Notes under the pieces: generated by a model
Database searches by the model: none
What the model saw: the letters and a program-made list of their open reading frames with translations, nothing else
Told to the model about the DNA's origin: nothing
Program-made: the position numbers and the translations under genes
In this document: one piece after another, positions 12,304 to 30,173 of the stretch
How positions within the stretch are numbered: position 1 is the stretch's first letter
Layout of the letters: the number at the start of each line of letters is the position of its first letter
Assembly: GCA_028227395.1 (NCBI GenBank)
Contig: JAOIZZ010000003.1
Span: forward strand, 63,077 to 127,076
Source of the DNA: Woeseiaceae bacterium
GTDB lineage: Bacteria > Pseudomonadota > Gammaproteobacteria > Steroidobacterales > Woeseiaceae
Direction of reading: 5' to 3'
DNA: 64,000 nucleotides

Positions 12304-13557
12304 TTATCGATTATTTTTTCTCAAGAGCCAAGTGGCGGCTATGCCAATAAATGCAATAATGGTTAGGAAGATAAAATAATTTTGATGTCCTATTAAGCCT
12401 GGATTTGCATCAAGAATTCTTCCCGAAATAGAGCCAAAAAATATTTCTGGTGTAAAGCCTACGAACGAAACAATACCAATAGTCGTGCCTGTAATTTTTG
12501 CTGGGGTATTAATTTCATGTATAAGCGCAAAATAAATACCTCGAATGGCAAATACTGCAAAGAAAGTTACAAAGATATTCATGTATAAAAAAGTGATCCA
12601 TGGTGCCGAGCCATCCAAGAATATAAGGCTGCTAAAAGAGCATAAGAGCATGCAAAACATCAATAATATAACGCGACTTGCTACCATCCGATCGGCTAGT
12701 ATTCCAGCAAACACGGCCGCAATAGGTCTAGTCAATGAAGCGTATGTAAATAGTGTGGCGGCATCGACCTCATTCATGCCCATTACTTCATAAGCGTATA
12801 AAGCTGTGTTATCGAGACCTTTGTAGGTTGAATAGGCGCAAATAATGATGGCTGCATGCAACCAAACCAAACGGTTTGAGAGGACCTTAGTTAAACTTCT
12901 GAAATCAATTGAGCTTTTTTTGTTAGTGGTATGCACTTGAGATTCAGGAAGAAATTTCCATACCAAGACAGCACCCATAGCGGTTAGTGAAGAATAAAAT
13001 AGTATAATAGAACGAAAACCATTTAATCTTTCACTTGCCGAAGCAAGGTTTATTTGCAGTGGTAAAAAACTAGCAAAAATTATAATTGCAATCGCTGATA
13101 ATAATGAAGCAAGAACACCTCTCCCCCCTTCAAGTAATCCAAAAGCTTTTCCTTGAGTATTATCTCCGCCCCATTCTCTCGTGGCTTTAAGCATTGCTGC
13201 CCAAAATAAAAAAATCGTAGTAATGCCCCAATATCCATATAACAATGTCATTCCGAATAAATCCGGGATGGTACTCATGTATATTCCACCAGATGCTGTC
13301 AGTAACAAAGAAACTGCCATTAATTTTCGCGCCGAAATTTTATCGGCGATGATGCCTCCTAGAAAATAGGAAACCATGGCCATTGAGCCATAGACTGCAA
13401 AGATATCTCCTAAATTGGTATTAGTTAAATTAAATATATCTAAAAAGGTGGGTCGAAAAAAACGTGCTAAATGAAAAGGTAAACTGAACACTAACTCACT
13501 GGCTAAAATCAATATGATTATTTGTGTCGTGCGATGTTTATTTTTAATCATGATCAT
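12304..13557 (-). CDS. MFS transporter
   Basis: 417 aa, about 12 TM segments, MFS-like loop motifs. It is convergent with the SSS gene. Confidence 0.7.
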   Translation of the reverse strand: MIMIKNKHRTTQIIILILASELVFSLPFHLARFFRPTFLDIFNLTNTNLGDIFAVYGSMAMVSYFLGGIIADKISARKLMAVSLLLTASGGIYMSTIPDLFGMTLLYGYWGITTIFLFWAAMLKATREWGGDNTQGKAFGLLEGGRGVLASLLSAIAIIIFASFLPLQINLASASERLNGFRSIILFYSSLTAMGAVLVWKFLPESQVHTTNKKSSIDFRSLTKVLSNRLVWLHAAIIICAYSTYKGLDNTALYAYEVMGMNEVDAATLFTYASLTRPIAAVFAGILADRMVASRVILLMFCMLLCSFSSLIFLDGSAPWITFLYMNIFVTFFAVFAIRGIYFALIHEINTPAKITGTTIGIVSFVGFTPEIFFGSISGRILDANPGLIGHQNYFIFLTIIAFIGIAATWLLRKNNR

Positions 13558-13683
13558 ATTAACAAGAGTATTCTATAAATTTCCTGATAGGTGAAAAATT
13601 TGTGATTTTAATTTTGATCAGCAAAAATTCAGTTGGATTGCTAAAATAATAATTTATTAAGCTTAAGGATAATTATTATTTCT

Positions 13684-14424
13684 GTGATATTCGCATTTTT
13701 TGCTACGGCATTAGTTTATGCTTCTGTCGGTTTCGGGGGTGGCTCGACCTATAACGCCTTATTGATTTTGAGTCAGGTCGATTACAATTTGGTGCCAATT
13801 ATTGCCTTAATATGTAATGTGATCGTCGTGAGTGGTAATTGCTTGAGATACCATAAAAATGATTTGATACCTTGGTCATTTACTTTGCCGGTTATTTTGG
13901 TGTCTATTCCCTTTGCTTTTATGGGCGGTAATATCTTTATTGATGAAGCTCTCTTTATCAAAATCTTGGGTTGGACATTGTTGTTTTCTGGATTGATGAT
14001 GTTTTATAGGCATCAAGAGATTACTTCAGTATCGCCAAAATTAAATAGCTCTATAGGTAAATTTATCAGTATTGTCATCGCAGCTATCTTAGGTTTTCTT
14101 GCTGGTCTAGTGGGTATTGGTGGAGGCATTTTCTTCGCTCCTATGTTGCATATAACCCAGGTCCTCCCAACGAGAAAGATCGCTGCTTTTGCCAGTATTT
14201 TTATTCTGGTTAATTCTGTAGCTGGTCTTATTGGACAATATAATAAGTACGATAACCTTGATATATTGTGGCTTGACAATCAATATATTTGGCTCTTACT
14301 AGCAGTATTTATCGGAGGGCAATTGGGTTCATATATCAGTATCAAAAGAATTAAACCAATTATTTTACGTAGACTAACCGCGGGACTAGTGATTTATGTA
14401 GGATGTAGATTATTATTGATATAA
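13684..14424 (+). CDS. TauE/SafE family sulfite/organosulfonate exporter-like membrane protein
   Basis: 246 aa with a GTG start. The two-repeat membrane protein carries GFGGGSTYNALL and GIGGGIFFAPML motifs, characteristic of TauE/SafE (DUF81). Confidence 0.75.
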   Translation: MIFAFFATALVYASVGFGGGSTYNALLILSQVDYNLVPIIALICNVIVVSGNCLRYHKNDLIPWSFTLPVILVSIPFAFMGGNIFIDEALFIKILGWTLLFSGLMMFYRHQEITSVSPKLNSSIGKFISIVIAAILGFLAGLVGIGGGIFFAPMLHITQVLPTRKIAAFASIFILVNSVAGLIGQYNKYDNLDILWLDNQYIWLLLAVFIGGQLGSYISIKRIKPIILRRLTAGLVIYVGCRLLLI

Positions 14425-14459
14425 GATTAAATGAACGAATGTAATTATAAGAACAGTGC

Positions 14460-15071
14460 TTGAGGTATTCAGTGTCATTAGAAATAAGAAAAATCGTAGT
14501 ACATGATGAAGAAACTCTAATTGAAGGATTTTGTGAAGCAAAAAGTCCCCTCAGAATGTTCGCAGTAGCGGCGGTTATAAAAAACCCATGGTCTGGAAGA
14601 TACGTCGATGATTTAAAACCAGAAATCTTATCTATCGCTCCTCCTTTGGGTGAGGAATTAACTCAAAGAATTATAGAGTTAGCAGGCGGTGGAGAAAAAA
14701 TAGAGGCCTATGGTAAAGCAGCTGTTGTGGGGCTTGACGGAGAAATAGAACACGCCTCTGCCTTGATACATACTTTGCGATTCGGGAATTTTTACAGAGA
14801 GGCAGTAGGAGCGAAAAGTTATTTATCCTTCACGAATACTCGTGGCCCTGCCAATGCATCAATTATGGTTCCGTTGATGGATAAAAATGATGCCGGTCGT
14901 CGTTCTCACTATTTAACCATTCAATTTTCTATTGCAGATGCTCCAAGGGCGGATGAGATTGTAGTTGTTCTAGGGGGCTCAATTGGCGGTCGTCCTCATC
15001 ATCGTATTGGTGATCGCTATCAAGACTTAAAAGATCTCGGTCATGATGTGGAAAACCCTGCCTCGGTATAG
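14460..15071 (+). CDS. 'amino acid synthesis' family protein (AA_synth/DUF1185-type), function unknown
   Basis: 203 aa. EIRKIVV...AVAAVIKNPWSGRYVDDL...YGKAAVVGLDGEIEHASALIH...APRADEIVV...GGRPHHRIG matches the family consensus as I remember it. The start is uncertain (TTG 14460 or GTG 14472). Confidence 0.7.
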   Translation: MRYSVSLEIRKIVVHDEETLIEGFCEAKSPLRMFAVAAVIKNPWSGRYVDDLKPEILSIAPPLGEELTQRIIELAGGGEKIEAYGKAAVVGLDGEIEHASALIHTLRFGNFYREAVGAKSYLSFTNTRGPANASIMVPLMDKNDAGRRSHYLTIQFSIADAPRADEIVVVLGGSIGGRPHHRIGDRYQDLKDLGHDVENPASV

Positions 15072-15855
15072 AACTACCAATAACATTGCCTATTACAAAA
15101 CTGGTAATGGCCCGGCTATTCTTCTGATTCATGGCGTGGGTTTGAGGCTAGAAAGTTGGAATGCCCAAATAAGCATTCTCAGTAAAGAGCACACCGTTTA
15201 TGCCATCGACTTGCCAGGCCACGGAGAAAGTGATCAGTTAATACTAGAATCACCTAATATAAATCTTTATACACAACAAATAAAATTATTTGCCGACGAA
15301 ATAATTACAGGTGCTTTTATAGTGATGGGGCATTCTCTGGGTGCTCTGATCGCGATTCGTTTTGCTCATTTGCACAAAAAATATTGTCTTGGTGTTGTGG
15401 CTTTAAATTGCGTTTATCAACGCACGAAAAAAGCAATGAGTTTCGTCAAATCGCGAGCAACAAAACTTGCTCTAGAGGGCCCTAAAAATATTATTCCTCA
15501 AACAATTGATCGATGGTTTGGAGAAAGTCCATTGGGTTCTAATTTAGAAATAGCTAGTACTTGTAAGCAATGGTTAGAAGCAACAAATACAGACGGTTAT
15601 AGCCATGCTTATAATGCTTTTGCTGATGAAGATGGGGCGGCAGAAAAAATATTGATAATGAATAATTTGCCCATCGCATTTATAACAGGTACGTTAGACT
15701 CAAATTCAACGCCATTAATGAGTCAGGATATGGCGATGATCTCTCCTTTTGGAGTGGTCGAATTAATCCCAGAAGCGGGTCATATGGCACAAATGACTCA
15801 CTCAAAAGAGGTTGGTGAAGTACTGCGATTATTTGCACTGGGCATTAGAAATTAA
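15043..15855 (+). CDS. alpha/beta-fold hydrolase
   Basis: 270 aa. Oxyanion LLIHGVG, nucleophile elbow GHSLGA, C-terminal GHM histidine. It overlaps the upstream gene by 29 nt. Confidence 0.75.
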   Translation: MMWKTLPRYRTTNNIAYYKTGNGPAILLIHGVGLRLESWNAQISILSKEHTVYAIDLPGHGESDQLILESPNINLYTQQIKLFADEIITGAFIVMGHSLGALIAIRFAHLHKKYCLGVVALNCVYQRTKKAMSFVKSRATKLALEGPKNIIPQTIDRWFGESPLGSNLEIASTCKQWLEATNTDGYSHAYNAFADEDGAAEKILIMNNLPIAFITGTLDSNSTPLMSQDMAMISPFGVVELIPEAGHMAQMTHSKEVGEVLRLFALGIRN

Positions 15856-15872
15856 TATAACGAGATAGTTTG

Positions 15873-16910
15873 ATGAAATTTTCACTTTTTGCACATATGG
15901 AACGCACAAGTCAACAGCAATCATATGTTGATTCATACGATGAGTTCTTGGGGTTGTGTCAGCTGGCAGATCAAGGTGGAATGCATGCAATATGGACGGG
16001 CGAACATCATTGTATGGATTTTACTATTGCCCCTAATCCATTTATTAATATCGCTGACTTAGCCAGTAAATTGGATAATGTACGTTTAGGGACAGGCACT
16101 ATTATCGCGCCATTTTGGCACCCAATCAAGCTGGCTGGTGAATCGGCTATGACGGATATAATTACATCGGGAAGACTAGAGCTTGGTATTGCAAGAGGGG
16201 CTTATAGCTATGAATATGAACGTTTAATGCCAGGCATGGATGCTTGGGAGGCCGGTGCTCGCATGCGAGAAATGATACCGGCAATTCAAGGGCTTTGGAG
16301 CGGTAATTATAAGCACGATGGAGAGTATTATAAATTTCCAGAATCAACGTCAACTCCAAAACCAATGCAATCGTCAGGCCCACCTATTTGGATCGCTGCA
16401 AGAGATCCAAATAGTCATGAATTTGCTATAAAAAATAATTGTAATGTTCAGGTCACTCCACTCTGGCAAGGCTATAAGGAAGTAAGAGATTTGATAGCTC
16501 GCTTTAAAGATGCTCAGATTAAATGTCAAAATAAAGCCCAATCAAAAATAATGTTGTTGCAGCATACATTTGTAGCAGGTTCCGATGATGAGATAGATTA
16601 TGCAGCCAAAAAATTCAGTGAGTTTTATGGTCACTTTGGTGCGTGGTTTAAAAATGAAAGACCAGTAGATCAAGCCTTAATGAAAAAATTATCCGTTCCA
16701 GAATTAGAAGTGCTTGATATGTATTCACCTTCCGTTATGAAAGCTAATTTAGCCATCGGTAATTCAACGGATGTGATAAATTTGCTAAAAAAATATGAGG
16801 GGCTCGGCTATGATGAATTTGCTTATTGGATTGATTCAGGAATGAGTTTTGAGCATAAAAAAGCATCTTTAAATAGGTTTATTAACGAAGTTATGCCAGC
16901 TTTTCAATAA
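15873..16910 (+). CDS. LLM-class (luciferase-like) flavin-dependent monooxygenase/oxidoreductase
   Basis: About 345 aa. The N-terminus F.LF....R......Y....EL...AD..G...IWTGEHH and the motifs RLGTGTIIAPFWHP and GRLELGIARG are typical of the LLM family. ATG at 15873; the track's 15870 is a TTG. Confidence 0.8.
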   Translation: MKFSLFAHMERTSQQQSYVDSYDEFLGLCQLADQGGMHAIWTGEHHCMDFTIAPNPFINIADLASKLDNVRLGTGTIIAPFWHPIKLAGESAMTDIITSGRLELGIARGAYSYEYERLMPGMDAWEAGARMREMIPAIQGLWSGNYKHDGEYYKFPESTSTPKPMQSSGPPIWIAARDPNSHEFAIKNNCNVQVTPLWQGYKEVRDLIARFKDAQIKCQNKAQSKIMLLQHTFVAGSDDEIDYAAKKFSEFYGHFGAWFKNERPVDQALMKKLSVPELEVLDMYSPSVMKANLAIGNSTDVINLLKKYEGLGYDEFAYWIDSGMSFEHKKASLNRFINEVMPAFQ

Positions 16911-16927
16911 TCAATGGGTTATGACAT

Positions 16928-18415
16928 ATGACTATTCAGGAAAAAATACCTCATTACCCGCTTTTTATAAACGGCGAATTTGTTGAGGGAGAAAAAAAAG
17001 AAAGTATAGAGAGTATCAACCCTCATACTGGAAAGGCATGGGCAACGTTTGCTGTCGCTAATGATTTTGATGTGAATCGTGCAATATCCATAGCAAAACA
17101 ATCAATGGAAAAAGGCAAGTGGGCAGATATGCTGCCCTCAATGCGTGGTAAATTATTGTGTGCTCTGGCTGATTTAATCGAAAAGCACGCTTCTTTTCTG
17201 GGTGAAATAGAAACCAAGGATAGCGGTAAATTACTTGTCGAGACAGCCACTCAAACAAAATATGTTGCTGATTATTACCGTTATTATGCTGGCTTGGCAG
17301 ACAAAATAGAGGGCGCAACTTTACCGATTGATAAACCGGATATGCATGTTTTCACTACCTGTGAACCGATTGGCGTGGTCGCAGCGATAGTTCCTTGGAA
17401 TGCACAAATGTTCCTTACAGCAACAAAACTAGCTCCGGCACTGGCTGCTGGTTGCGCTATTATTATCAAAGCATCTGAAATTGCCCCATGTGTATTATTG
17501 CATTTTGGGAGACTGATTAAAGAGGCAGGATTTCCAGATGGTGTGGTCTCAATTATCACTGGAGATGCAAAAAGTTGTGCAATTCCATTAACGATACATC
17601 CCGATATTGATCGAATTGCATTTACCGGAGGACCGGAAACTGCTAAACAAATCATTACTAATTCAGCGGAAAATTTTGCTGTTACCACGCTTGAGTTGGG
17701 CGGTAAATCTCCAATAATAATTTTTGAAGATGCAGATATTGATAGCGCAGTTAATGGAATTATCGCTGGAAACTTTGGTGCATCAGGGCAATCTTGTGTT
17801 GCTGGATCAAGAGTGATTGTGCATGAATCAATAAAAAATGACGTTATAGCTAGGCTCATAAAAAAGGCCAACAACATCAAAGTGGGCAGCCCAACAGACC
17901 CAGAGACTCATGTGGGTCCGCTATGTACTGAAAAGCAAATTATATTAATTGAAAACACACTAAAGAAAGCCATTTCACAGAAGGCTAAAATACAATTTGG
18001 TGGAAAGCGAAAACAAAGTGAAGGATATTATTTTGAACCAACATTGGTGGATTGCCCTAATGAATCGATTGCGACACTTGAAGTTGAAATGTTTGGCCCA
18101 GTAATGTCAATGCTGTCTTTCAAGAGCGAAGAAGAGGCGATTGATTTAGCTAATAATAGTTTATACGGGCTTGGCTCAGGTGTATTTACTACTAATTTGG
18201 CTCGCGCACACCGTGTTTCCAAAAAGATTAAGGCAGGTATTTGTTGGATTAATACCTATCGAGCAATTTCACCTATTGCTCCGTTTGGTGGTTATAATCG
18301 ATCGGGTTATGCCAGAGAAGCTGGTATTCAGGCAATAAATGATTACGTGAGGACAAAAACAACTTGGATTAATATATCTGACGAGCCTATGGCTAATCCA
18401 TTTGTTATGCGTTAA
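16928..18415 (+). CDS. NAD(P)+-dependent aldehyde dehydrogenase
   Basis: 495 aa. ALDH signatures VPWNAQM, ELGGKSP (catalytic Glu) and GQSCVAGSR (catalytic Cys). Confidence 0.85.
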   Translation: MTIQEKIPHYPLFINGEFVEGEKKESIESINPHTGKAWATFAVANDFDVNRAISIAKQSMEKGKWADMLPSMRGKLLCALADLIEKHASFLGEIETKDSGKLLVETATQTKYVADYYRYYAGLADKIEGATLPIDKPDMHVFTTCEPIGVVAAIVPWNAQMFLTATKLAPALAAGCAIIIKASEIAPCVLLHFGRLIKEAGFPDGVVSIITGDAKSCAIPLTIHPDIDRIAFTGGPETAKQIITNSAENFAVTTLELGGKSPIIIFEDADIDSAVNGIIAGNFGASGQSCVAGSRVIVHESIKNDVIARLIKKANNIKVGSPTDPETHVGPLCTEKQIILIENTLKKAISQKAKIQFGGKRKQSEGYYFEPTLVDCPNESIATLEVEMFGPVMSMLSFKSEEEAIDLANNSLYGLGSGVFTTNLARAHRVSKKIKAGICWINTYRAISPIAPFGGYNRSGYAREAGIQAINDYVRTKTTWINISDEPMANPFVMR

Positions 18416-18437: not shown

Positions 18438-20072
18438 TTATTGAGTTGAGTCAGAGTCATCATTTAATAACGACTTAATCAGTGAAATAACCATAAGTGC
18501 CATGACCACTGAAAACGGCAGAGCCCCTATAATCATTATTGATCGCAATGCCTCCATTCCTCCAGCTGCTAACAATACGCCGATAAGAATCGAGAATAGG
18601 ATCCCCCAAATTACTATATGTTTAGCTTGTTTTTGACTTTGACTACCACCTGATGCCAGCGTAGTGATGATCAAAATACCTGAATCTGCTGAAGTGATTA
18701 AAAACGTTAATAGTAATGTCACAATGATTAAGGAGAGCGCGATGGATAATCCCGGTGAAAGTATTAAATTAATTGTTTCGAATAATTGCGCTGAAATATC
18801 TGCATTAACGATGGCACCCTGAGCGATATCACTCAGTTCAAGATCAATTGCTGTAGCACCGATGAAGGTGATCCATACCAAGCAGATCAAAGAAGGAATA
18901 ATCATTGCGCCGATGACATATTCGCGAATGGTCCTGCCTCGAGAGACGCGGGCTAAAAATAAACCGACAAAAGGAGCGAAAGCGATCCACCAGGCCCAAT
19001 AAAATATAGTCCAAGTACTTTGCCATCCTTGTAATGCAGCAGAGGGTTCAACGCCGTTATCTTTCCAAACGGTGGTAGACATCGATGGAAGGGCGATCAG
19101 ATAATCCCATATCGTGTAAAAAAAGGTTTCTAAGGCAAAAAAGGTAGCGCCAAATAAAATGAAAAAGGCAATTAAGAAAACCGATAAACTCATATTAATA
19201 TTTGACAACCACTTGATGCCTTTTTGTAAACCCGACATAGCAGAAACACAAGAAGCACTAACGATTAGAGTTAATCCGAATAACTGAGCTAGAAGAGTTG
19301 GCTTCCCGCTGCCATCTATCAACCACGTTGCACCACTTATATTGAAAAGGCCAGAGGCAAATTGTGATACACCATAACCAATCGTCACACTTAGACCAAC
19401 GATAGTGGCTAAGATAGCAACGATATCCACAACGTGTCCCGCGCCGCCCGACATAGCTCGGCCAAAAAGAGGTTGTAAGGCACTTCGAATTGTTAGAGGC
19501 AGGTTACGATTATAGGATAAATATCCCAGTGAAATACCAATCACACCATAACAAGCCCAAGGCGTGAGGCCATAGTGCAACATAGCCCATTTATAGGCAT
19601 TACGAACATTATTTTCATCCAGTCCAGTGGCTAATCCTTTGATCGTGTCAGGGTTAGTGGTGAAGTGAGAAAGAGGTTCAGCAGTAGAATAAGTAAGCAT
19701 CCCTATACCTATACCAGCACCAAACATCATCGAGATCCATGAGAAGGTACTAAATTCTGGTTTTTCATTAGGCTTACCCAGTTTTATATGAGCCGTGCGA
19801 GGCCAAAATCCAAGGCATAAACAAGCAATGGTATAAAATGCAGTGACATAGACATACCAGGTCCCAAAGGTTTCAGTCGACCAATTTTGTGCTTCCAATA
19901 ATATTTGGCCGGTAGTGGAAGGTGAGATAGCCACCCACATAATGAGCCCACCAATTAATAATTTTGGTATCACAGCAACAACACGATTAAAGCCTTTGTA
20001 GAATCCAGACTGATCTGTATTTATGAATACAGCTGGTTGCTGCTGACTTGAGGGTGAATTATCCAAGATCAT
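18438..20072 (-). CDS. BCCT family (betaine/carnitine/choline) transporter, copy 1
   Basis: 544 aa. BCCT signature WTIFYWAWWIAFAPFVGLFLARVSRGRTIREY. Confidence 0.85.
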   Translation of the reverse strand: MILDNSPSSQQQPAVFINTDQSGFYKGFNRVVAVIPKLLIGGLIMWVAISPSTTGQILLEAQNWSTETFGTWYVYVTAFYTIACLCLGFWPRTAHIKLGKPNEKPEFSTFSWISMMFGAGIGIGMLTYSTAEPLSHFTTNPDTIKGLATGLDENNVRNAYKWAMLHYGLTPWACYGVIGISLGYLSYNRNLPLTIRSALQPLFGRAMSGGAGHVVDIVAILATIVGLSVTIGYGVSQFASGLFNISGATWLIDGSGKPTLLAQLFGLTLIVSASCVSAMSGLQKGIKWLSNINMSLSVFLIAFFILFGATFFALETFFYTIWDYLIALPSMSTTVWKDNGVEPSAALQGWQSTWTIFYWAWWIAFAPFVGLFLARVSRGRTIREYVIGAMIIPSLICLVWITFIGATAIDLELSDIAQGAIVNADISAQLFETINLILSPGLSIALSLIIVTLLLTFLITSADSGILIITTLASGGSQSQKQAKHIVIWGILFSILIGVLLAAGGMEALRSIMIIGALPFSVVMALMVISLIKSLLNDDSDSTQ

Positions 20073-20105: not shown

Positions 20106-20867
20106 TTATTCACCCGCACCAAGTCGGGATTGTTCACTTGCTTCGACTAATATCTGATCAGCTATATGCAAGAGCTTTGTATATTGAGTAGCCTCAATAT
20201 CAAGACCACTTGTTATTTTCTCATTAAAACGTTGTTTAAATTCACATGCTAGAATTTCTTGAGTCACTTTTCCTTTTTGTGAAACAGGTGGAATCTTTAA
20301 ATAAGACTCAATGGAATTAATACTATGTTTAGAGCATATCAAATCTAATTCAGACTTGTTATTGAGTATTGAATTATTTATTTTTATTGTTGAAAAATTT
20401 GGATACATTTCATTAGGATTGATACTCGCTGAATACAGTAAATTTTTTTCTGGTTCTGCCCACCATGCTTTCGCGTAATAACCATATTGACTGCATTTAA
20501 TGAGGTTAGGGAGAATAACAATAGGCTTAAGCGTATTGTTGATAATAGAATGACAGAAATTATCTTGATGGCATTTTGCTAATGTCATATCAGTAATAAT
20601 ACTGCCTGTATGAATGAGGCTATGTTTTTGATTATCAAAGACAAAACATTTTTTCTTATCCTTTAAAAGGATAGGTGTGAGATTTAATTTTTTAGGGTTC
20701 ACGTCAGTTATTCCTAGAAAATTAATAATTCCCAAAAGATCGTGAATTTCAAGCCATTGAATGATTGCTGCTGTATCTTCGAAATCATATTTATGACCAT
20801 AATATGATTCACAGGCACGATTTAGCAGGGCTTTGAATTCATTGATTGAAATTCTAATGAATTTCAT
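20106..20867 (-). CDS. hypothetical protein (253 aa), no motif recognised
   Basis: AAGGAA SD before the ATG at 20867. It overlaps the upstream gene by 14 nt and looks soluble. It is possibly related to the small DUF proteins found beside M19-like genes in betaine loci, but that is memory only. Confidence 0.6.
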   Translation of the reverse strand: MKFIRISINEFKALLNRACESYYGHKYDFEDTAAIIQWLEIHDLLGIINFLGITDVNPKKLNLTPILLKDKKKCFVFDNQKHSLIHTGSIITDMTLAKCHQDNFCHSIINNTLKPIVILPNLIKCSQYGYYAKAWWAEPEKNLLYSASINPNEMYPNFSTIKINNSILNNKSELDLICSKHSINSIESYLKIPPVSQKGKVTQEILACEFKQRFNEKITSGLDIEATQYTKLLHIADQILVEASEQSRLGAGE

Positions 20868-22581
20868 TTCCTTTGCTCATTTGATTATTTGGCATGATAG
20901 GGAAGATCCAATCATCTTTATATTTAGAGCCAATATCAGAGGTAATTGGCGCTCCTTGGAACATCGTATTACGAACCCATAGTCGAGACTTAGGATCAAA
21001 TTTTCCAACGCCAAAAAACGATAACTTACAGCGCAATAAATGTATTGGCAGCACATCTTTATCAAGTAAATTTGCTTGTATTTCACCGTATTTTGTTTTT
21101 GCCATTGTTTGTATACGCCGAATAATTTGACGATGCTCGGGGTATGCGAATACGAATTCAGCAACATTATTAATTTTTATTTCTGGAGGTAATTTTTTAA
21201 GAGTCGAATGACATTGTTCAACAGCCCGAGCAATACCGATCAGTATTTCTTTTTCAGCGCCCTGATCAATGTCTCTATCACCAAGTCTTGGCTCCATTTT
21301 TTCTTCAGATCGATACCAGAAAACAGCATTTGCACTTTTGGAATTGAAATCGTATTGCAACGCCCATTGATATTGCTTTTCTATAATTTGTCTGAGATCC
21401 AATAATTTCATTTCTGGAGACAGTGCGTATATTTCCTCGATGTCATGGTTTTCTTCTAGAGACAATACTTCTTCAGGGTGGATTTCGATTAAAATGGTAT
21501 TAATGAGTTCTTGCGCTTCAACATTATAGTGGTTGGTTACATAGTCTATAAATTGACCCCACTCTTGAAGAGTTTCTTTGTTCAGCCACTGTATGATCGA
21601 GCCTAGGGATTGACTGGCCTCTAGATTAATTTTATTTTGCGACTCATTATTGGTCGTTATTTCATTTAAATGAATGATGGCACGTTGTATCAATAAATTC
21701 AGAGCTTGCAGGGTATTTTTATTTGGTAGTGTATGGCTTATAACTTGTGCTAATGCTAATTCTCTCGTTTCGATCCAGCTATTGATTAATAAAGGATGCT
21801 TGATTAAAAAAGGCGCCATTCCAAGACCAGTAGCATTACCAATCCCAAAATACCTTTTTATGTCATCATCGAGACGAACTGCTAACTCAGGTGCACGCTT
21901 GAATGCAATATGATCGGCTTGATCTAGGCTGAACTGTCTGATCATAAAACAAGCAAACATTTCAGCTGAAAATGGCTCTTTGAAGTCTTGATAAGCTAAT
22001 TTTATTTTGCCCCAATCAGCCATTCCGAATTTACCGCTTCCATACACAGCCGTTGTTCGATACAAATAGCCAACCTCATTAATTTTTTTGATACAAGGCT
22101 GCATACCAGAACTGAGTTGATTGACCACATATTCAAAGTTACGGCTGCTTTTATTGGCTCTTGATAACACTAGACTTTCTGCTGACATTCTACCTTTTTC
22201 TTGGCGTGGCACATTTTCTTTCAGCGTCTCTAATTCATCTGGTTTAAAGGGTCCATGCCGAAGCGTAACAGTCATGTCCCAAGCCTCTGCAATCACTCTA
22301 TCTGTTCGAATAGTGCTATCTAGAAAATTGGCAAATACGACAAAATGATAACAAGTGCTTGGAGTGGTTATCTCATAAACAGTTTCACCATAACCCTCTT
22401 TGTCTAAATTAAACAAGACGCGATTAATGCTCCACTGCTCTTGCATAACTTTTCTCATTAACTTTCGCATAAAACTAAGTTTATAAGGATAAAAGCTTCC
22501 TAGTCGATTGAGATCCATGACTTTTGCTGGGCTTCTTAAGCTCGTTTTTGCTTGCTTAAGGCTGTGATTATGATTATTCAT
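20854..22581 (-). CDS. hypothetical protein (575 aa), no motif recognised
   Basis: A long uninterrupted ORF whose ATGA overlaps the M19-like gene stop. It has no TM segment, signal peptide, P-loop or other cofactor motif visible to me. Confidence 0.65.
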   Translation of the reverse strand: MNNHNHSLKQAKTSLRSPAKVMDLNRLGSFYPYKLSFMRKLMRKVMQEQWSINRVLFNLDKEGYGETVYEITTPSTCYHFVVFANFLDSTIRTDRVIAEAWDMTVTLRHGPFKPDELETLKENVPRQEKGRMSAESLVLSRANKSSRNFEYVVNQLSSGMQPCIKKINEVGYLYRTTAVYGSGKFGMADWGKIKLAYQDFKEPFSAEMFACFMIRQFSLDQADHIAFKRAPELAVRLDDDIKRYFGIGNATGLGMAPFLIKHPLLINSWIETRELALAQVISHTLPNKNTLQALNLLIQRAIIHLNEITTNNESQNKINLEASQSLGSIIQWLNKETLQEWGQFIDYVTNHYNVEAQELINTILIEIHPEEVLSLEENHDIEEIYALSPEMKLLDLRQIIEKQYQWALQYDFNSKSANAVFWYRSEEKMEPRLGDRDIDQGAEKEILIGIARAVEQCHSTLKKLPPEIKINNVAEFVFAYPEHRQIIRRIQTMAKTKYGEIQANLLDKDVLPIHLLRCKLSFFGVGKFDPKSRLWVRNTMFQGAPITSDIGSKYKDDWIFPIMPNNQMSKGNEIH

Positions 22582-23582
22582 GAGTCTTTATTAGGCATGG
22601 GCGGAAAGGACGACAAGAAGAAATTTAACCAATTTTTACCCATGATTTTTTCTATGTCATGATCACTGAAACTTACAGCTTGAAGGCCATCAATTAAGTT
22701 TTGGAATCCCAAATTATTTTTAAACCAGTCTGGTTGTTTGGGCCATGCAGGTTGTTCAGCATTACCTTCACCAAAGTCAGGTGTGAGTGCCCATCGGCCA
22801 CTGCGCATCCATTCTAAGATGGTATAGTCCCAGTTAAGACATAAATCTGAGCCAATACCAATGCGATCTATACCCATAAATTCAGCTGTGTCATAGATCA
22901 TATTGCAAAATTCTTCTAAGGTGCAATCAGAACCTTTAGCAAGGTGAAAAGGGTAAAGACTCACGCCTAGCATACCTTTAGATTCACTGAGATTCTTGAG
23001 AACATCATTTGATTTATTTCTTAATGCTGCGTGGAAAGTAGTTGGATTTGCATGCGTGATTGCAATTGGTCGAGTAGAAATTTCCATGGCTTGTAAGGTT
23101 GAATATTCAGCACTGTGCGACATATCGATGATCATACCGAGACGATTCATTTCTTTGATAGCCACTTTGCCAAACCGAGTGATGCCTGAATCTCTCTCTT
23201 CATAGCAACCAGTGGCAAGTAGGCTTTGATTGTTATAACTGAGTTGCATTATACGTGCGCCTAGATGATGCATTTCTTCAATAAGACGAACATCGTCTTC
23301 CACGGGAGAGCAATTTTGAAAGCCAAAGATAATACCAATTTTATTATTATCTTGAGCGACTTGAATGTCCTCAGCACTTCTGATTGGCATAATAAGATCA
23401 GCATGTTCTGTGAATTGTTTGTTCCAGTTATCAATATTTTGAATGACTTCTTTTCGATTTTCCCAATAGGCGATAGTGACATGAATCACATTAAGACCGC
23501 CGCGCTTCGCTTCTTTAAAAAGTTCTCGATTCCAATTTACATATTGGAGGCAATCAATAATTAATATGTCATTGGTATTCAT
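22578..23582 (-). CDS. peptidase M19 (renal dipeptidase) family homologue with a degenerate metal site
   Basis: 334 aa. It is collinear with DPEP1 motifs: IIDMSHS, AITHANP and GIGSD are conserved. IIDCLQY replaces VIDGHND and GFQN replaces GVEG. The start shares one nt with the ALDH stop (TAATG). Confidence 0.75.
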   Translation of the reverse strand: MNTNDILIIDCLQYVNWNRELFKEAKRGGLNVIHVTIAYWENRKEVIQNIDNWNKQFTEHADLIMPIRSAEDIQVAQDNNKIGIIFGFQNCSPVEDDVRLIEEMHHLGARIMQLSYNNQSLLATGCYEERDSGITRFGKVAIKEMNRLGMIIDMSHSAEYSTLQAMEISTRPIAITHANPTTFHAALRNKSNDVLKNLSESKGMLGVSLYPFHLAKGSDCTLEEFCNMIYDTAEFMGIDRIGIGSDLCLNWDYTILEWMRSGRWALTPDFGEGNAEQPAWPKQPDWFKNNLGFQNLIDGLQAVSFSDHDIEKIMGKNWLNFFLSSFPPMPNKDS

Positions 23583-25021
23583 TATGAAGAAATATAGGTC
23601 GTTTTAACGATAGTATAAAACTCTTTAGCATAGGATCCCTGCTCACGAGGCCCATAGCTTGAAGATTTTCTGCCACCGAACGGGACATGGTAATCGGTTC
23701 CAGCGGTTGGTAGGTTAACCATTACACAGCCCGATTCAGAATGTCGTTTAAAGTGATTGGCTTGTTTGAGTGATTGAGTAATAATCCCTGAAGTTAGACC
23801 AAAATCAGAGTCATTAGAGATGGCCAATGCGTCTTCATAACTCTTAGCTTTTATAACGCAAGCAATTGGTCCGAATACTTCCTCACGATTAATTTCCATC
23901 TGATTATTAGTTTCTGTAAATAAGGTAGGACGCATATAAAATCCATTATGACTCACCGTTATTGATTCATCACCAACTATCATTTTAGCGCCAGCTTTTT
24001 GAGCAGATGCTATGTATTTTTTATTTTGTTCAAATTGACGTGAATCAACCACAGGACCAATTTGTGTTGTCTTATCTAATGCATTTCCGACAACCAATCC
24101 TTGTGTTGCTGTGATCATTTTTTCAACGAACTCATCATGAATGCCCGCTTCAACAATTAGTCTAGAGGATGCAGTGCATTTTTGTCCGGTACCAAAAAAT
24201 GCGCCGTTAATGGCGCATTGGACGGCAATATCAATATCAGCATCATTCAGGATGACCAGCGCATTTTTGCTGCCCATCTCTAATTGAATTCGTGTCATAT
24301 TTTTAATGGCTTTTTGTGCTATCAAGTTGCCTGTCTTGACTGAGCCTGTAAATGAAATAGCATCAATGTTTTTTGATTCTGAGAGTGTCTCACCAGCAAT
24401 ACTTCCTGGCCCTTGAATACAGTTAAATACACCTTTCGGTAAACCACTTCGATGCAATATATCAGCAAATGCAATTGCACTGGCTGGCACAATTTCAGAA
24501 GGTTTAAGGACAACACAATTACCAAAAGCAAGGGCTGGCGCTATTTTCCAGGCAGCAACTGCTATGGGGAAGTTCCAAGGCGTAATCACACCAATTACAC
24601 CTAATGGCTCTCTTGTGACTTCAACATTTATATTAGGTCGAGTGGAAGTGGCCAGTTCACCCATCTGCCTGAGAACTTCTGCGCCGAAGTATTGAAAGAA
24701 TTGTCCTGATCGATATACCTCACCAATGCCTTCAGCTAATGGTTTACCTTCTTCTCGCGCTATTAATTCACCAATTTCGGTACTGCAATTAATGAGCTCA
24801 TCGCCAATATAATCGAGTATTTTTTTTCTCTCTTCCAGTGAGCTGGCTGACCATTCAGTAAAAGCATCTCTAGCACTTTTGATTGCCAATAAACTGTCTT
24901 CTTTAGAGGCTGCATGAAAAGTACCAATACAATCTGTCGTATCAGAAGGATTGATGCTAGTGAATGATTGGCCATCATTAAACCATTGACCATTAATTAA
25001 GTTACTTCCTAAATTTGACAT
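23582..25021 (-). CDS. NAD(P)+-dependent aldehyde dehydrogenase (semialdehyde dehydrogenase-like)
   Basis: 479 aa. ITPWNFP, LEMGSKNA (catalytic Glu) and GQKCTASSR (catalytic Cys). Confidence 0.85.
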   Translation of the reverse strand: MSNLGSNLINGQWFNDGQSFTSINPSDTTDCIGTFHAASKEDSLLAIKSARDAFTEWSASSLEERKKILDYIGDELINCSTEIGELIAREEGKPLAEGIGEVYRSGQFFQYFGAEVLRQMGELATSTRPNINVEVTREPLGVIGVITPWNFPIAVAAWKIAPALAFGNCVVLKPSEIVPASAIAFADILHRSGLPKGVFNCIQGPGSIAGETLSESKNIDAISFTGSVKTGNLIAQKAIKNMTRIQLEMGSKNALVILNDADIDIAVQCAINGAFFGTGQKCTASSRLIVEAGIHDEFVEKMITATQGLVVGNALDKTTQIGPVVDSRQFEQNKKYIASAQKAGAKMIVGDESITVSHNGFYMRPTLFTETNNQMEINREEVFGPIACVIKAKSYEDALAISNDSDFGLTSGIITQSLKQANHFKRHSESGCVMVNLPTAGTDYHVPFGGRKSSSYGPREQGSYAKEFYTIVKTTYISS

Positions 25022-25090: not shown

Positions 25091-27073
25091 TTAAACAAGA
25101 TCTCCCAATGCATTTTTAAGAGGCTGCAACCAGGGCTCATAGTTTTTCCATTGCTCTAATCCACTTTTATAGATGGGCTGTCTTACTTGTTCTGAACTAG
25201 GTGTTCTGACATTTCTTTTGGTTTGATGAAAGTTAATGCAATTTTCTTCAAAAGGAAGTTCACAATAATCAAGAATGCGATGCACTTCACGGTCTAAGTT
25301 AGCCACCACATTTTCATATTGAACACGAAGAATTTTCCCAGGAAGTATTTCATCCCAATGATCCATTACTTTTACGTAATCACGATAATAAGTTCCAATT
25401 TCCTCTAAACCATAAGAGAATTGTTGGCCACTGGCGAATAGCTGTTTGAAACCACTAAAGCAACAAGCCATTGGTTCTCGTCGTGCATCAATTATTTTTG
25501 CATTTGGAAGAATCAATCGTATTAAAGCAATATGTCGAAAATTATTGGGCATTTTATCAATAAAGTAAGGCGCTTTTTTTCGATGAATGCGAGTTTCTTC
25601 AATATAATTTTTACCGAAGGCCTTTAGTTTTTCAGGATCGAGTGTGCTTAAATTAGCAGGATAATCTGGCGTCTGATTGATGGTTTTTCTACCTGCGAGT
25701 TTATAGGCAAGTGCCGGAATGTTGGGTAATTCTAGAGTTCCTTCAACTTGAGAGTGTGAGGCTAAAATTTGCTCTAATAGGGTCGAGCCTGCTCTAGGTA
25801 ATCCGACTATAAAAATGGGGGCTGAATCTAGATGACCTTGATTATGTTTTGCATTAAATAGATCAACATTACAATGCGCTTGCTGTAAGGCAAGAATCTT
25901 AGTCATATTTTCTTTAGTATAGTTATGATTCGTTTTTTGTAAGGTATTACCTCTTTCATAATAATAGAATGATTTTTTGAATTGTTTTTGATCCTCATAA
26001 TGTTTGCCAAGGGCAAAACAAAGATGAATTCTGTTAGTTGCTACGGTGGCACTCATGGCCTCTTTTTCAGTCATTAAATTAACTTCTTGGTCGGTAAATT
26101 CATATGTCTTTAAATTAGCCATACTCCAATAAGCGTCACCAAAATCATTGCGTGCCGCATATGCTTTTCGATAAGCCTCAATTGCTTCGTCTTTTTTACC
26201 AATAGTTTTAAGGGCGTGCCCATGAACCAATCTTAGTTCTGGGTCATTTGGAGTAATTTTGTTTGCCTTGTCATAGATATTCAATGCTGTCTTGTAATCA
26301 CCTACTGCTATGGATTGATTAGCAAAAGCTATTTTATATTTAAGGTTGCTAGGTTCTCTCTTAATTAGGATTTTTGCTTGCTCAAGCGATTGCTTGTATT
26401 TTTGACGTCGATACAAAACAACCATATAGTCGTGCCTGGCAAAATTGTTTTCTGGTTCGAACTCAAGTGCTTTTTCGAGCAAAAATTCAGCGTCATCTAG
26501 AACGTCAGCAGCAACACCAAGGCTAGCTAATAAACGCATCCCCTCGACATTTTTTTTATTCTTTTGCAAAAATTGTCGACATAACTGTTCTGCATCATAG
26601 CTATGACCTTCAGAAATCATGTTACGAACGCTTAATAATTCATCGGGTAAGGCTTTTAATTTTTCATATTCGGTATTTGTGATTTTCGCGTTATCATGAT
26701 TGCCTTGTTTGGTATGGATTTTTGTTAAACCGGCCCAACTCGCTATTAAGGAGTTATTAAGCGAAACGGCATGTCGATAAGCATAAAGCGCCTGACTGGT
26801 GAATCCTGCAGCCATACAAACATGCCCTTCTTCTTGAAAAGCTCTGCCATATCCAGGGCGAATTTTTTTTAACTGTCTTAAGGTTGCAAGCGCCTCTTCT
26901 AGCCTATTAAGGTATCTTTGGCATACGGCTTTAATATAGAGGGCTTTTCCATTTTCAGGATATTGCTCGAGGATCACTTCTGTTTTTTTCTCAGCTTCAA
27001 CCAGACGACTGTTTACTAGAAGTGATCTTGCTTCTTCTAATGCAACTTCAATTTGTTCTTTATTATTCATCAT
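25091..27073 (-). CDS. TPR-repeat / sulfotransferase-domain protein
   Basis: 660 aa. The N-terminal roughly 400 aa are TPR-like. The C-terminal domain carries the PAPS 5'-phosphosulfate loop GLPRAGSTLLEQILASH and the later RxxxS region. Confidence 0.75.
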   Translation of the reverse strand: MMNNKEQIEVALEEARSLLVNSRLVEAEKKTEVILEQYPENGKALYIKAVCQRYLNRLEEALATLRQLKKIRPGYGRAFQEEGHVCMAAGFTSQALYAYRHAVSLNNSLIASWAGLTKIHTKQGNHDNAKITNTEYEKLKALPDELLSVRNMISEGHSYDAEQLCRQFLQKNKKNVEGMRLLASLGVAADVLDDAEFLLEKALEFEPENNFARHDYMVVLYRRQKYKQSLEQAKILIKREPSNLKYKIAFANQSIAVGDYKTALNIYDKANKITPNDPELRLVHGHALKTIGKKDEAIEAYRKAYAARNDFGDAYWSMANLKTYEFTDQEVNLMTEKEAMSATVATNRIHLCFALGKHYEDQKQFKKSFYYYERGNTLQKTNHNYTKENMTKILALQQAHCNVDLFNAKHNQGHLDSAPIFIVGLPRAGSTLLEQILASHSQVEGTLELPNIPALAYKLAGRKTINQTPDYPANLSTLDPEKLKAFGKNYIEETRIHRKKAPYFIDKMPNNFRHIALIRLILPNAKIIDARREPMACCFSGFKQLFASGQQFSYGLEEIGTYYRDYVKVMDHWDEILPGKILRVQYENVVANLDREVHRILDYCELPFEENCINFHQTKRNVRTPSSEQVRQPIYKSGLEQWKNYEPWLQPLKNALGDLV

Positions 27074-27106
27074 CTAATTTATTATTGATTATTTCGAAGA
27101 AAGAAA

Positions 27107-27130
27107 AAAGGCGAGCCTTAGCTCGCCTTT
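27107..27130 (-). terminator. rho-independent terminator after the TonB-dependent receptor gene
   Basis: AAAGGCGAGC-CTTA-GCTCGCCTTT forms a perfect 10-bp stem (GC-rich 7-bp core) with a 4-nt loop. On the minus strand a U6 run follows. It lies 37 nt after the receptor stop. Confidence 0.7.
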
Positions 27131-27166
27131 ATTTTCCTTCTGCGTAATAACTACGCTAACACTATA

Positions 27167-29929
27167 TTAGAAGTCGTATGAGACTCTAAAACCCATAGTA
27201 CGTGGGCGGTTAGTGGTAGCTCTTTCGAAGAAGTCTTGTCTGTTGATATGCAACTGTGCACGTTCGTCAGTTAAGTTCTTCACATAGAGCTCCATGCCCC
27301 AGTTATTATTTATATTTTTCAAGCCAACTGAAGTATCAAAAACTGTGTAAGCTTTTTGAAATACATTTGGCTCGTCAGTCGTATCAACTATTGAGTTAAG
27401 CGCTTTTCCTGCATGCTTCATACCCAATTGATAGTAGATACTTCCGTTTGCTGTTTCCCGCTCATATTTAGCTCTAATGGTATATTGTACTTCAGGAGTC
27501 AAAGGTAATTGACGACCTTCATCTTGAACTACGAGAGCAAACGCTGGATCAACACGAGTCAATTCAGTTTTATTATATGAACCAGCTGCATAGACAGTTA
27601 GATTGTCTGTGGCTGCCCATGTAAGATCGCCTTCCATTCCTTTGATTTCAGCATCACCACCATTATCAACAAGTGTAAATATTGAGATGTTTTGCGAATC
27701 GAAATGTGACACTTGAATGTCTTTCCAGTCGATCATGTAGATTGCACCATTGAAACGTAAACGACCATCAAACATAGTTGATTTCCAGCCGAACTCAGTA
27801 CTTTCCATCACATCTGATCTGAACACATAAGGTAAGCAGTATCCAGGGAAGCCAGTTGCTGCGTTTGCATCAATTGCTCCTTTAGTACCACAAGCTATCT
27901 CTGTAGCTAGGCCTGCATTTGCCTTATTATTTGCAGTTGCATCATAAACACCTAGTTTAGCCGCGCCTCGGTTGAAACCACCAGGACGATAACCCTCAGA
28001 CCATGTTGTGTACAATAAGAGATCATCACTTGGCGTATAAGACAACGTGAATTTCATCATTGTATCTTTAGTGCTAATAGGCCTAATTGCCGATGTAAAT
28101 TTAGTGGCATAATCTCGACCACCAGTGACATTAGGTCTAACGTCATTTGAAGGGTCAGCATCATCTACCAGTAATGGACGATTACCGTATCTCCATGCGC
28201 CGTATCCTGTGAAGTCATAATCTAAATCATATTTACGTGCACTCACAGCTACATTCAATTCATCGCTGAGTTGAAAATCAATCTCACCAAACACTGCTGT
28301 TTGCTTTTCTGTTCTAAGATTGTCATTTCTAAACTGCGTTGCACCATTTACAACACCTCTTGCGTTAGCAGATGCTGTACCAAATGTACCTGGCGATCTA
28401 TTGATATCGATTGGGGCAAAGCCTGCTTCGTATGGTGCCATGTAGTTAAAATTACCGATGTGTTTGATTTCGAAATCTTCGACATAAACACCACCTTGCA
28501 TGTTGACCATACCATCCCAATTTGTAGCGAATCGTATTTCATTAGTCATGCGCGTCATTTCATTTTGCAGTCCTACAGCATTTGCTGGGTTACCGCACTC
28601 GATCACGCCAGGATTACCGCTTAGCGTTGGATCATAACCATACCTTGCTACTGTATTAGCAGCTGCTACTGCTGCAGTGGTTATATTACCATCAGCATCT
28701 TTTACTTCTGCAACTGCAAGAGTTTCACCTACACCTGCACCAGTATAATAACCGGCACCGGTTAAGTATTCACAGATATAACCTGATATGGATCCACCGA
28801 TATTGGTATAGCCAGTGTAATCAAGTTGTGCATCGACTGAACGATCTAAGAAAGCACCTGTATAAACAATATCGATATCACCCATTGAACCATTTAGAGT
28901 CCAAGCAGTTGTGTTGAACGAATCATCTAATTTATCAGGTGTGAACCGCGATACTTTGAGGTCACCTTTGGCCATATCATAATCCCAAACACCTTCAGTT
29001 TTGAGAGACTGAGTAGTATTTTGGAGAAGTATATCCCAGTTTTCATTAAGTACCCATTTAAGGCCCATTCTAGCGCCTGCATAGTGTGCATCATTAAAAT
29101 CATCTTCAACGATTGAATCATTTCTTGCTGCTGTATAATTAACTGGAATTGTTGTACCTGCTGCGATTTCTGTTCCGTTAAAGAATCTGGTTGCTTTAGC
29201 GTACGTAACACCAGTTGCTTTAGGGAATGTTCCGTTAATCTTACTACTAGGCGTGAATGTTCCTGCTACATTATCAATATAACCACCTTGGTTATCATTA
29301 TAAAGAGCTACCCTGAATGCCATTTTACCTTCAATCAACGGAACATTAAGCATCATTTCAGCTGAGTTTGAATTCTCACCACCTGATGTAGATGCAAAAC
29401 CGCCATTAAAGCTTGCTTGGAATTCATCAATCACTGGTTTGTTAGTAATTAATCTAACTGTACCTGCCATTGAGCTGGCACCATATAAAGTACCTTGTGG
29501 CCCAGGAAGTACCTCAATACGTTCCATGTCAGTAACATAAACATCTAAGTTACGACCGCCTGATGTAACTGGTTGTTCATCTAAGTAGAGTGCAACGTTT
29601 GGAGCGGAACCTTGAGATTCTGCAACCGTGATATTAATCGCATCGACTGCGGCACCACGAATGTAGATTTCATTTTGTCCTGGTCCTCGTCCACCAGCAT
29701 TAACGCTTGGTAGATATTTCACATAGTCACTGAAGCTTTGAATATTTTCGTCTTCTAGTCTTTGTGCGTCCATTGCTTGCACGGCAAGTGGAATATCTTG
29801 CATGCTAGCTGACCGTTTTGTTGCAGTGACTGTAATTTCTTCTATTGCTTGAGCATGCACCGCTGAAGTAGCAGCACTTGCTGACATCGCAAGTAATACA
29901 GCTTGATGTACTTTGTTTACCTTAAGCAT
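27167..29929 (-). CDS. TonB-dependent outer-membrane receptor
   Basis: About 920 aa. Signal peptide MLKVNKVHQAVLLAMSASAATSAVHA, plug region (EEITVTATKR..., IEVLPGPQGTLYGASSMAGT) and a C-terminal beta-barrel ending in ...RVSYDF. ATG at 29929, preceded by GGGGGAA, is preferred over the TTG at 29950. Confidence 0.9.
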   Translation of the reverse strand: MLKVNKVHQAVLLAMSASAATSAVHAQAIEEITVTATKRSASMQDIPLAVQAMDAQRLEDENIQSFSDYVKYLPSVNAGGRGPGQNEIYIRGAAVDAINITVAESQGSAPNVALYLDEQPVTSGGRNLDVYVTDMERIEVLPGPQGTLYGASSMAGTVRLITNKPVIDEFQASFNGGFASTSGGENSNSAEMMLNVPLIEGKMAFRVALYNDNQGGYIDNVAGTFTPSSKINGTFPKATGVTYAKATRFFNGTEIAAGTTIPVNYTAARNDSIVEDDFNDAHYAGARMGLKWVLNENWDILLQNTTQSLKTEGVWDYDMAKGDLKVSRFTPDKLDDSFNTTAWTLNGSMGDIDIVYTGAFLDRSVDAQLDYTGYTNIGGSISGYICEYLTGAGYYTGAGVGETLAVAEVKDADGNITTAAVAAANTVARYGYDPTLSGNPGVIECGNPANAVGLQNEMTRMTNEIRFATNWDGMVNMQGGVYVEDFEIKHIGNFNYMAPYEAGFAPIDINRSPGTFGTASANARGVVNGATQFRNDNLRTEKQTAVFGEIDFQLSDELNVAVSARKYDLDYDFTGYGAWRYGNRPLLVDDADPSNDVRPNVTGGRDYATKFTSAIRPISTKDTMMKFTLSYTPSDDLLLYTTWSEGYRPGGFNRGAAKLGVYDATANNKANAGLATEIACGTKGAIDANAATGFPGYCLPYVFRSDVMESTEFGWKSTMFDGRLRFNGAIYMIDWKDIQVSHFDSQNISIFTLVDNGGDAEIKGMEGDLTWAATDNLTVYAAGSYNKTELTRVDPAFALVVQDEGRQLPLTPEVQYTIRAKYERETANGSIYYQLGMKHAGKALNSIVDTTDEPNVFQKAYTVFDTSVGLKNINNNWGMELYVKNLTDERAQLHINRQDFFERATTNRPRTMGFRVSYDF

Positions 29930-30173
29930 ATCTGGTTTCCCCCGAGGCAATTTATGTTGCCGTTTTTTTGCTTAGTTAATAAAACATTACTTGTTGTTTG
30001 TGTGACTTTTTCAAATTTTTTTTACAAAAAAATGAGTTAAATCGACACAGTAATGCATGAAATTTAAAGTAGTTGGATCAAAACTACAAGCAAATAATTA
30101 ACTTTTTACGCTTTTTTGTTATTTTTGTTGTTTTAATACAACAATAGAAAAAACTCAATATATTTGGTTTTGA

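Follow-up and report, generated by a model that had tools for sequence, protein, structure and literature searches.

The window analysed here, a 64,000-nucleotide stretch of contig JAOIZZ010000003.1 from the genome of a Woeseiaceae bacterium (assembly GCA_028227395.1), contains two consecutive genes encoding proteins of 575 and 253 amino acids (aa) that are very probably orthologues of homB and homA, located in a streamlined homD-homC-homB-homA-homT operon for the degradation of homarine. The assignment is based on synteny, gene sizes, annotations and homologues found in relatives of Cobetia and Ruegeria. In the initial annotation the two products were described as orphans and as the least explained coding capacity of the window; neither description can be retained, since both proteins have homologues, those of the larger one forming a very large family, and the pair is recognisable as the published homB/homA. 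The genetics of this system and the pathway that it serves have already been described.

Synteny and homology with the published hom operon

In marine phytoplankton and invertebrates, homarine is one of the small nitrogen metabolites present in greatest abundance, and the hom operon is, to our knowledge, the only known route for its breakdown by bacteria. The degradation of homarine (N-methylpicolinate, an algal metabolite) by this operon was shown in March 2026 (Ferrer-Gonzalez, Heal et al., Nat Microbiol 2026, PMC13236597), where the operon is defined as homABCDER together with the transporter gene homT. In Cobetia sp. OBi1 the genes are ordered homE, homA, homB, homT, homC, homD and homR (ACFLL8_11490-11520, with homA and homB being ACFLL8_11495 and ACFLL8_11500), and in Ruegeria pomeroyi DSS-3 homA, homB, homC, homD and homR correspond to SPO3188-3192, homA being SPO3188 and homB SPO3189 (PMC13236597). 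The reported sizes of homA and homB are about 700 and about 1,700 nucleotides (nt), respectively; HomC is a predicted peptidase, HomD is an aldehyde-dehydrogenase-like oxidoreductase, and homT encodes a predicted glycine-betaine-type transporter, deletion of which lowers growth on homarine (PMC13236597). Growth on homarine was lost in transposon mutants of homB (in R. pomeroyi), homC, homD and homR, and labelled homarine was converted to N-methylglutamate and, by demethylation, to glutamate; the genetics and metabolomics of that study cover Cobetia and R. pomeroyi only (PMC13236597).

In the window, the genes for an aldehyde dehydrogenase (ALDH), an M19-family protein, the 575-aa protein, the 253-aa protein and a BCCT-family transporter follow one another in the order homD-homC-homB-homA-homT. 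The ALDH-M19-575-253 block recurs across 70 loci of Woeseiaceae, Hyphomonadaceae, Halieaceae, Arenicella, Pseudomonadales and one member of Cryomorphaceae, with the ALDH gene preceding the M19 gene in most of those reaching far enough upstream. In almost every locus of this set and of Rhodobacteraceae, the M19 gene immediately precedes the 575-aa gene. Among about 157 loci of Rhodobacteraceae, the main pattern is LysR(divergent)-ALDH-M19-[BCCT]-575-253-Ldh_2, the commonest variants being represented by 35, 24 and 22 loci. Read backwards, this consensus reproduces gene for gene the published order of Cobetia, and also that of SPO3188-3192 of R. pomeroyi; the window would therefore carry homD-homC-homB-homA-homT. 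The published survey required homA, homB, homC and homD to lie within 10 kb, and found homA and homB to be adjacent in 97.7% of 11,755 genomes (PMC13236597); the homA- to homD-like genes of the window likewise lie within 10 kb, and the homA- and homB-like genes are adjacent.

The distribution of homologues points in the same direction. They were found in 68 of 70 genomes of the genus to which Ruegeria lacuscaerulensis belongs, in 179 of the 401 genomes sampled from its family, in many genomes of Halomonas and Marinobacter, and also in Luminiphilus and Vibrio-like genomes, which are groups named in PMC13236597. In a tree of 157 non-redundant homologues, the 575-aa protein of the window nests among copies nearly all of which have a homD/homC context. 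It is 45% identical to the copies from Halomonas, which belongs to the family of Cobetia, and 39% identical to those from Ruegeria. The Halomonas and Ruegeria copies are 41-45% identical to each other, and therefore the copy in the window is no more distant from the two studied lineages than these are from one another.

Taken feature by feature, the pair resembles the published operon in gene sizes, in the adjacency of homA and homB, in the neighbouring genes (a peptidase-like homC, an ALDH homD and a betaine-type transporter), in the predicted heterodimer and in the marine clades that carry the genes. It differs in that the host is a small-genome Woeseiaceae metagenome-assembled genome (MAG) without homR and homE, and in that the flavin adenine dinucleotide (FAD) annotation of HomA is not reproduced. 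The host is pelagic and its assembly comprises 1.62 Mb with 84.6% completeness; the nearest genome records are also pelagic Woeseiaceae MAGs, with a protein identity of 97%.

The five hom-like genes and the two gene junctions, in coordinates of the window and all on the minus strand, are as follows.

23582..25021, minus: homD-like gene for an aldehyde dehydrogenase of 479 aa, the first gene of the operon (Pfam Aldedh, E = 3e-155)
22578..23582, minus: homC-like gene for an M19 'dipeptidase'-family amidohydrolase of 334 aa with an atypical metal site (Pfam Peptidase_M19, E = 6.5e-72)
22578..22581, minus: ATGA, in which the TGA stop of homC overlaps with the ATG of homB, read from the sequence
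20854..22581, minus: homB-like gene, 575 aa, ATG start, flanked by the homC-like and homA-like genes; product matching no known domain or fold
20854..20867, minus: 14 nt shared by the end of homB and the beginning of homA, the homA ATG being preceded closely by the ribosome-binding site AAAGGAA, read from the sequence
20106..20867, minus: homA-like gene, 253 aa, ATG start; truncated Ldh_2-fold/DUF3726 protein with an invariant C-terminal tail
18438..20072, minus: homT-like gene for a BCCT-family transporter of 544 aa (Pfam BCCT, E = 1e-145)

All five genes are contained within 6.6 kb of one strand, and their frames overlap or nearly abut; the homT-like gene starts 33 nt after the 253-aa gene, with an AGGAG site in the spacer. 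The translations of the 575-aa and 253-aa open reading frames contain no internal stops. Together with the overlaps and the ribosome-binding site, the numerous homologues and the invariable pairing described below, this bears out the initial annotation, which regarded them as very likely real and noted their coupling signals; they are two real, translationally coupled genes. Contigs from RNA libraries of four metatranscriptome studies, 95-100% identical to the window, span both genes and both junctions. They are consistent with transcription in situ, and could also result from carried-over DNA.

The HomB-like and HomA-like proteins

Homologues of the 575-aa protein form at least 8000 clusters at 90% identity in a word-indexed search, all of them unnamed or hypothetical, and an exhaustive search of 50%-identity representatives returned 1285 clusters at E <= 0.001. 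The family is present in 31 of 401 evenly sampled Pseudomonadota genomes (about 8%). No match to the protein was found in Pfam or NCBIfam, and 63 aligned relatives gave only scattered chance matches in Pfam, with no consistent family. Searches of PDB by sequence and by profile returned no match. The AlphaFold model of the protein is confident, with a predicted local distance difference test (pLDDT) score of 93.8 and a predicted template-modelling (pTM) score of 0.92. Foldseek found no match to this model in PDB at E <= 0.001, a wide structure search with VIA-align recovered nothing beyond a generic hairpin of helices (residues 275-358, Z < 8), and a search of ESM Atlas with the protein yielded only unnamed or arbitrarily named clusters. 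Neither known domains nor solved folds thus include a relative of the HomB-like protein that could be detected, and no cofactor signature was recognised in it by the domain and fold searches. In an alignment of 64 members of the family, numerous Gly, Arg, His, Glu, Trp and Tyr positions, among them R215 and E274, are invariant or nearly so. Residues 243-262 (YFGIGNATGLGMAPFLIKHP), picked out in the initial annotation as a conserved-looking patch (motif form GIGNxTGLGMAPF), proved to be the most conserved stretch of the family; in and near it, no variation occurs at G246, G248 and G254, and conservation reaches at least 90% at N249, G252, H262 and P263.

The 253-aa protein matches DUF3726 (PF12525) with 18 bits (E = 0.0027), which is under the gathering cut-off of 22.1 bits. 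In its family, DUF3726 was detected in 56 of 57 aligned members (E <= 0.01) and Ldh_2 in 16 of 57, with no other Pfam family; the best DUF3726 match has E = 3e-16, and some members are above the cut-off. By transitivity, the protein of the window is classed as a divergent member of DUF3726. A search for PF12525 in 14 control genomes gave no match, and a literature search on 'DUF3726' returned no papers.

The AlphaFold model of the 253-aa protein (pLDDT 87.9) is related to type-2 malate/lactate dehydrogenases, which account for all Foldseek matches listed at E <= 0.001 (down to E = 2e-10, probability 1.00), with query-normalised template-modelling scores to Ldh_2 structures of 0.52-0.66. The family profile also retrieved Ldh_2 enzymes from PDB, plus one weak PlcR match, and hhalign aligned the family to the neighbouring full-length Ldh_2 genes, present in many of the same clusters in other genomes, with a probability of 94% and E = 9e-8. 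The profile covers the N-terminal 137 residues and the C-terminal 45 residues, a helix pair, of the 253-aa protein, and solved Ldh_2 enzymes align to the family only at positions 2-140 and 289-334. Relative to the full-length Ldh_2 domain of about 333 positions, the protein lacks about 90 central residues, approximately the central third, and has no counterpart of GTNP, GGxKG and GGPP, which are invariant in the full-length Ldh_2 neighbours. With the region of the central motifs missing, classification of the protein as a dehydrogenase is not warranted. The strongest conservation in the family is at the extreme C-terminus (LVExTExSRxGAGE, with S247 and R248 invariant), a tail that is disordered in the monomer model. 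Compared with the Ldh_2 family (PF02615; ureidoglycolate dehydrogenase AllD 4h8a/1xrh, sulfolactate dehydrogenase ComC 2x06, delta1-piperideine-2-carboxylate reductase DpkA 1wtj and YiaK 1nxu), the 253-aa protein has the fold in common but is about 90 residues shorter, is devoid of the central motifs, falls below the Pfam cut-off, has its own invariant tail SRxGAGE, and is partnered by or fused with HomB. We regard it as a stripped-down subunit of the Ldh_2 fold that is probably not a dehydrogenase. The absence of any recognisable motif, asserted in the initial annotation for both proteins, thus stands for the 575-aa protein, which has no Pfam, NCBIfam, PDB or fold match, and fails for the 253-aa protein with its DUF3726/Ldh_2 fold; a confident match to a characterised family, named there as evidence to the contrary, was obtained in the Ldh_2 matches of the smaller protein and not for the larger one.

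The two genes are always found together. A 253-like gene is directly downstream of the 575-like gene at all 66 loci with enough sequence, and a profile of the small protein detects a C-terminal 253-like domain in 44 of 47 relatives of the large protein of at least 740 aa, which answers in the affirmative the question of co-occurrence and fusion raised in the initial annotation. Pfam confirms DUF3726 in several of these B-A fusions, and also in one of 839 aa (L018:8013-10532). The predicted HomA-HomB complex scored 0.86, against 0.16 for the best control; 58 of 80 complexes of solved structure attain that mark, as do 2 of 110 mismatched pairs. The agreement of contacts between runs was at least 78%, and the pLDDT of the partners was at least 82. 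Sequence and profile searches of PDB revealed no solved complex similar to HomA-HomB that could account for the prediction. The residues of the modelled interface that are conserved in the families are G183, G186, Y423, E430-R432, P481 and R484 of the large protein, and S7, E10, E20, G221, L240 and V241 of the small one. An AlphaFold heterodimer of HomA and HomB was also predicted in PMC13236597. Always adjacent, often fused and forming a heterodimer in the models, HomA and HomB constitute an obligate pair.

Natural HomB-HomA fusions are common, being represented by L018:8013-10532, P0145, P0158, P0161, P0165 and about 40 others. In the longest of them (840-960 aa), the HomA-like part approaches the size of the full Ldh_2 domain. 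Judged from these sequences, the sizes of the fusions suggest a stepwise reduction of HomA from a complete dehydrogenase.

Proposed homarine degradation and alternative explanations

A pathway may be outlined in which ring opening by HomAB is followed by oxidation by HomD, deformylation by HomC and reduction of an imine; we consider the chances for and against this outline, built by analogy, to be evenly balanced. The HomA-HomB heterodimer would open the homarine ring by C5-C6 cleavage, using O2 and two reducing equivalents, to form 2-(N-methylformamido)-5-oxopent-2-enoate. HomD would oxidise the aldehyde to a product of formula C7H9NO5, and HomC, an M19 amidohydrolase, would then strip the N-formyl group to give C6H9NO4. 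The resulting N-methyl-iminoglutarate would be reduced to N-methylglutamate by the homE product, a candidate full-length Ldh_2 enzyme, where it is present, and by another reductase in the host of the window. An Ldh_2 protein of the HomE type would suit this last step because members of the DpkA type reduce N-methyl imino acids. The formulas C7H9NO5, C6H9NO4 and C6H9NO3 were reported for unidentified products in PMC13236597. By atom count, the first fits 2-(N-methylformamido)pent-2-enedioate, the second fits the deformylated enamine/imine (N-methyl-iminoglutarate), and the third fits the corresponding semialdehyde.

The model for this pathway is the degradation of trigonelline. TgnA/TgnB of Acinetobacter baylyi, said to have been described by Perchat and colleagues in 2018, is reportedly a two-component flavin oxygenase that opens the trigonelline ring. 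HomA-HomB is proposed to be its functional analogue, a two-protein unit opening the ring of an N-methylpyridinium carboxylate, with oxidation of an aldehyde and hydrolysis of an amide to follow, and the formula C7H9NO5 is identical to that of an intermediate of the trigonelline pathway. However, neither a flavin-reductase nor a luciferase-like monooxygenase domain was found by Pfam in 64 HomB-like and 57 HomA-like proteins, and the two systems are alike in function without sharing a protein family. More tentatively, and with the balance of probability against it, HomB could be the founder of an undescribed enzyme fold, which together with the catalytically stripped HomA would form a composite active site opening the N-methylpyridinium ring, with a cofactor or chemistry unlike both the trigonelline flavin system, which is cited in PMC13236597, and the FAD-based model put forward in that paper. 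The invariant tail of HomA may reach into HomB.

Several observations weigh against the assignment and the pathway. The sequences compared are those of relatives of the studied strains, not SPO3188/3189 or ACFLL8_11495/11500 themselves. Neither homE nor homR is present in the window; the lack of homE fits the tendency of small genomes to drop this gene (PMC13236597). The equation of homE with Ldh_2 is based on gene position, and the main text of PMC13236597 does not name the family of HomE. HomA is said in the same paper to have FAD-binding motifs, and no such motif was among the Pfam matches of the 57 HomA-like members, which comprise only DUF3726 and Ldh_2. A dedicated N-methylglutamate dehydrogenase (mgd) operon was sought in the host genome, at its completeness of 84.6%, and only the two sox-like operons of the window were found, each of them 30-43% identical to the sox/mgd-like genes located after homA in other lineages. 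Neither of the two is close to the hom-adjacent type, and no enzyme for the N-methylglutamate dehydrogenase step was recognised in the host; operons of the mgd type are often misannotated (PMC13236597). Ring opening by HomA-HomB is proposed by analogy, HomB itself giving no hint of a cofactor.

The identity to the relatives of the studied lineages is only 39-46%, so that the substrate specificity could differ. An operon of the same family might act not on homarine but on a different nitrogen compound, N-methylated or quaternary, taken up through the BCCT transporter, such as another pyridinium or an amino-acid betaine. Such a substrate would suit the surroundings, the window being an island of methylamine and betaine catabolism, and the second copies found in other contexts in Rhodobacteraceae make paralogues with other substrates plausible. 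Nevertheless, no gene of the canonical homD-C-B-A-T context is missing from the window, the copies among which its protein is placed in the tree have that context, and the Cobetia and Ruegeria lineages are equally far apart, yet both use homarine. A substrate other than homarine is thus considered unlikely.

It is more improbable still that HomA and HomB take no part in ring opening and are non-catalytic or act later, as a scaffold, chaperone or isomerase/hydratase, the first attack being made by an enzyme outside the operon. The central stretch with the invariant Ldh_2 motifs is indeed missing from HomA, HomB has neither a cofactor-binding signature nor a known fold, and the ring-opening role is a hypothesis in PMC13236597 as well. 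On the other hand, R. pomeroyi fails to grow on homarine when homB is disrupted by a transposon (PMC13236597), the core operon contains no other candidate for the first step, with the ALDH and the amidohydrolase suiting later ones, and the very strong conservation of HomB, in which numerous Arg, Gly, His and Glu positions are invariant, is what would be expected of an enzyme. The assignment of the pair to homB and homA, with ring opening as its proposed role, is therefore preferred.

Neighbouring genes and related modules

The closest solved relative of the M19 protein of the window is 2i5g (E = 4.8e-59), deposited as 'amidohydrolase', which we take to be a protein of Pseudomonas aeruginosa. 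In the homC-like protein (22578-23582), the His-x-Asp metal motif of canonical renal dipeptidases is replaced by IIDCLQY, and 2i5g has the same substitution (VIDGLII). From these motifs, the two proteins appear to form a separate M19 subgroup whose metal site is modified.

An accessory module for glycine betaine/dimethylglycine, of the type of the P. aeruginosa dgc operon, was also considered as an identity of the pair, and was dropped once the hom operon had been matched gene for gene. The dgc operon, which serves the catabolism of N-methyl amino acids, likewise encodes an atypical M19 protein and, next to it, a small hypothetical protein; unlike in the window, no HomB-like gene is reported there. 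The small protein PA5397 is presumably a DUF3726 protein.

In Halieaceae and Pseudomonadales, a sox-like heterotetramer operon with B-like, A-like and GCV_T-like genes directly follows homA (L036:10494-15713, L053:10588-15821 and L055:10488-15750); it is probably of the N-methylglutamate dehydrogenase type. Some Rhodobacteraceae (L087, L089 and L100; genomes G132, G278 and G160) have a second M19-HomB-like-HomA-like module, without ALDH, beside MttB-like or dimethylglycine dehydrogenase (DMGDH)-like genes. These second modules may be paralogues for another substrate.

A divergent cluster beside homT (12304-18415) contains genes for a major facilitator superfamily (MFS) protein, four small or medium-sized proteins and a second ALDH. 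Its position is kept in all close Woeseiaceae relatives (L001, L002, L004, L044 and L068), and parts of it recur near the hom genes of Arenicella (L047). On the other side, a TonB-dependent receptor and a protein combining tetratricopeptide repeats (TPR) with a sulfotransferase adjoin the hom genes of the window (25091-29950, minus). Both also occur beside the hom genes of Hyphomonadaceae (Hellea and Litorimonas) and several other gammaproteobacteria (L009-L037, L038, L040 and L041), in varying arrangements; this association covers two classes and is absent from the main text of PMC13236597. In Hyphomonadaceae (L030:3832-4467 and the equivalent positions in Hellea), a small gene for a class-I S-adenosylmethionine (SAM) methyltransferase is located between the TPR-sulfotransferase and Ldh_2 genes, upstream of the hom genes.

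With its homDCBA-T operon, complete in minimal form, this pelagic Woeseiaceae bacterium, whose genome comprises 1.6 Mb, would add one more streamlined lineage to the users of homarine and leaves the overall picture unchanged. The residual interest of the pair lies in enzymology, as a common two-protein unit in which a confidently modelled fold with no match is joined by a partner of degenerate dehydrogenase fold, with no evident cofactor. Starting points for such work are provided by the frequent natural B-A fusions, by the probable descent of HomA from Ldh_2 enzymes and by the interface of the model with its conserved residues.

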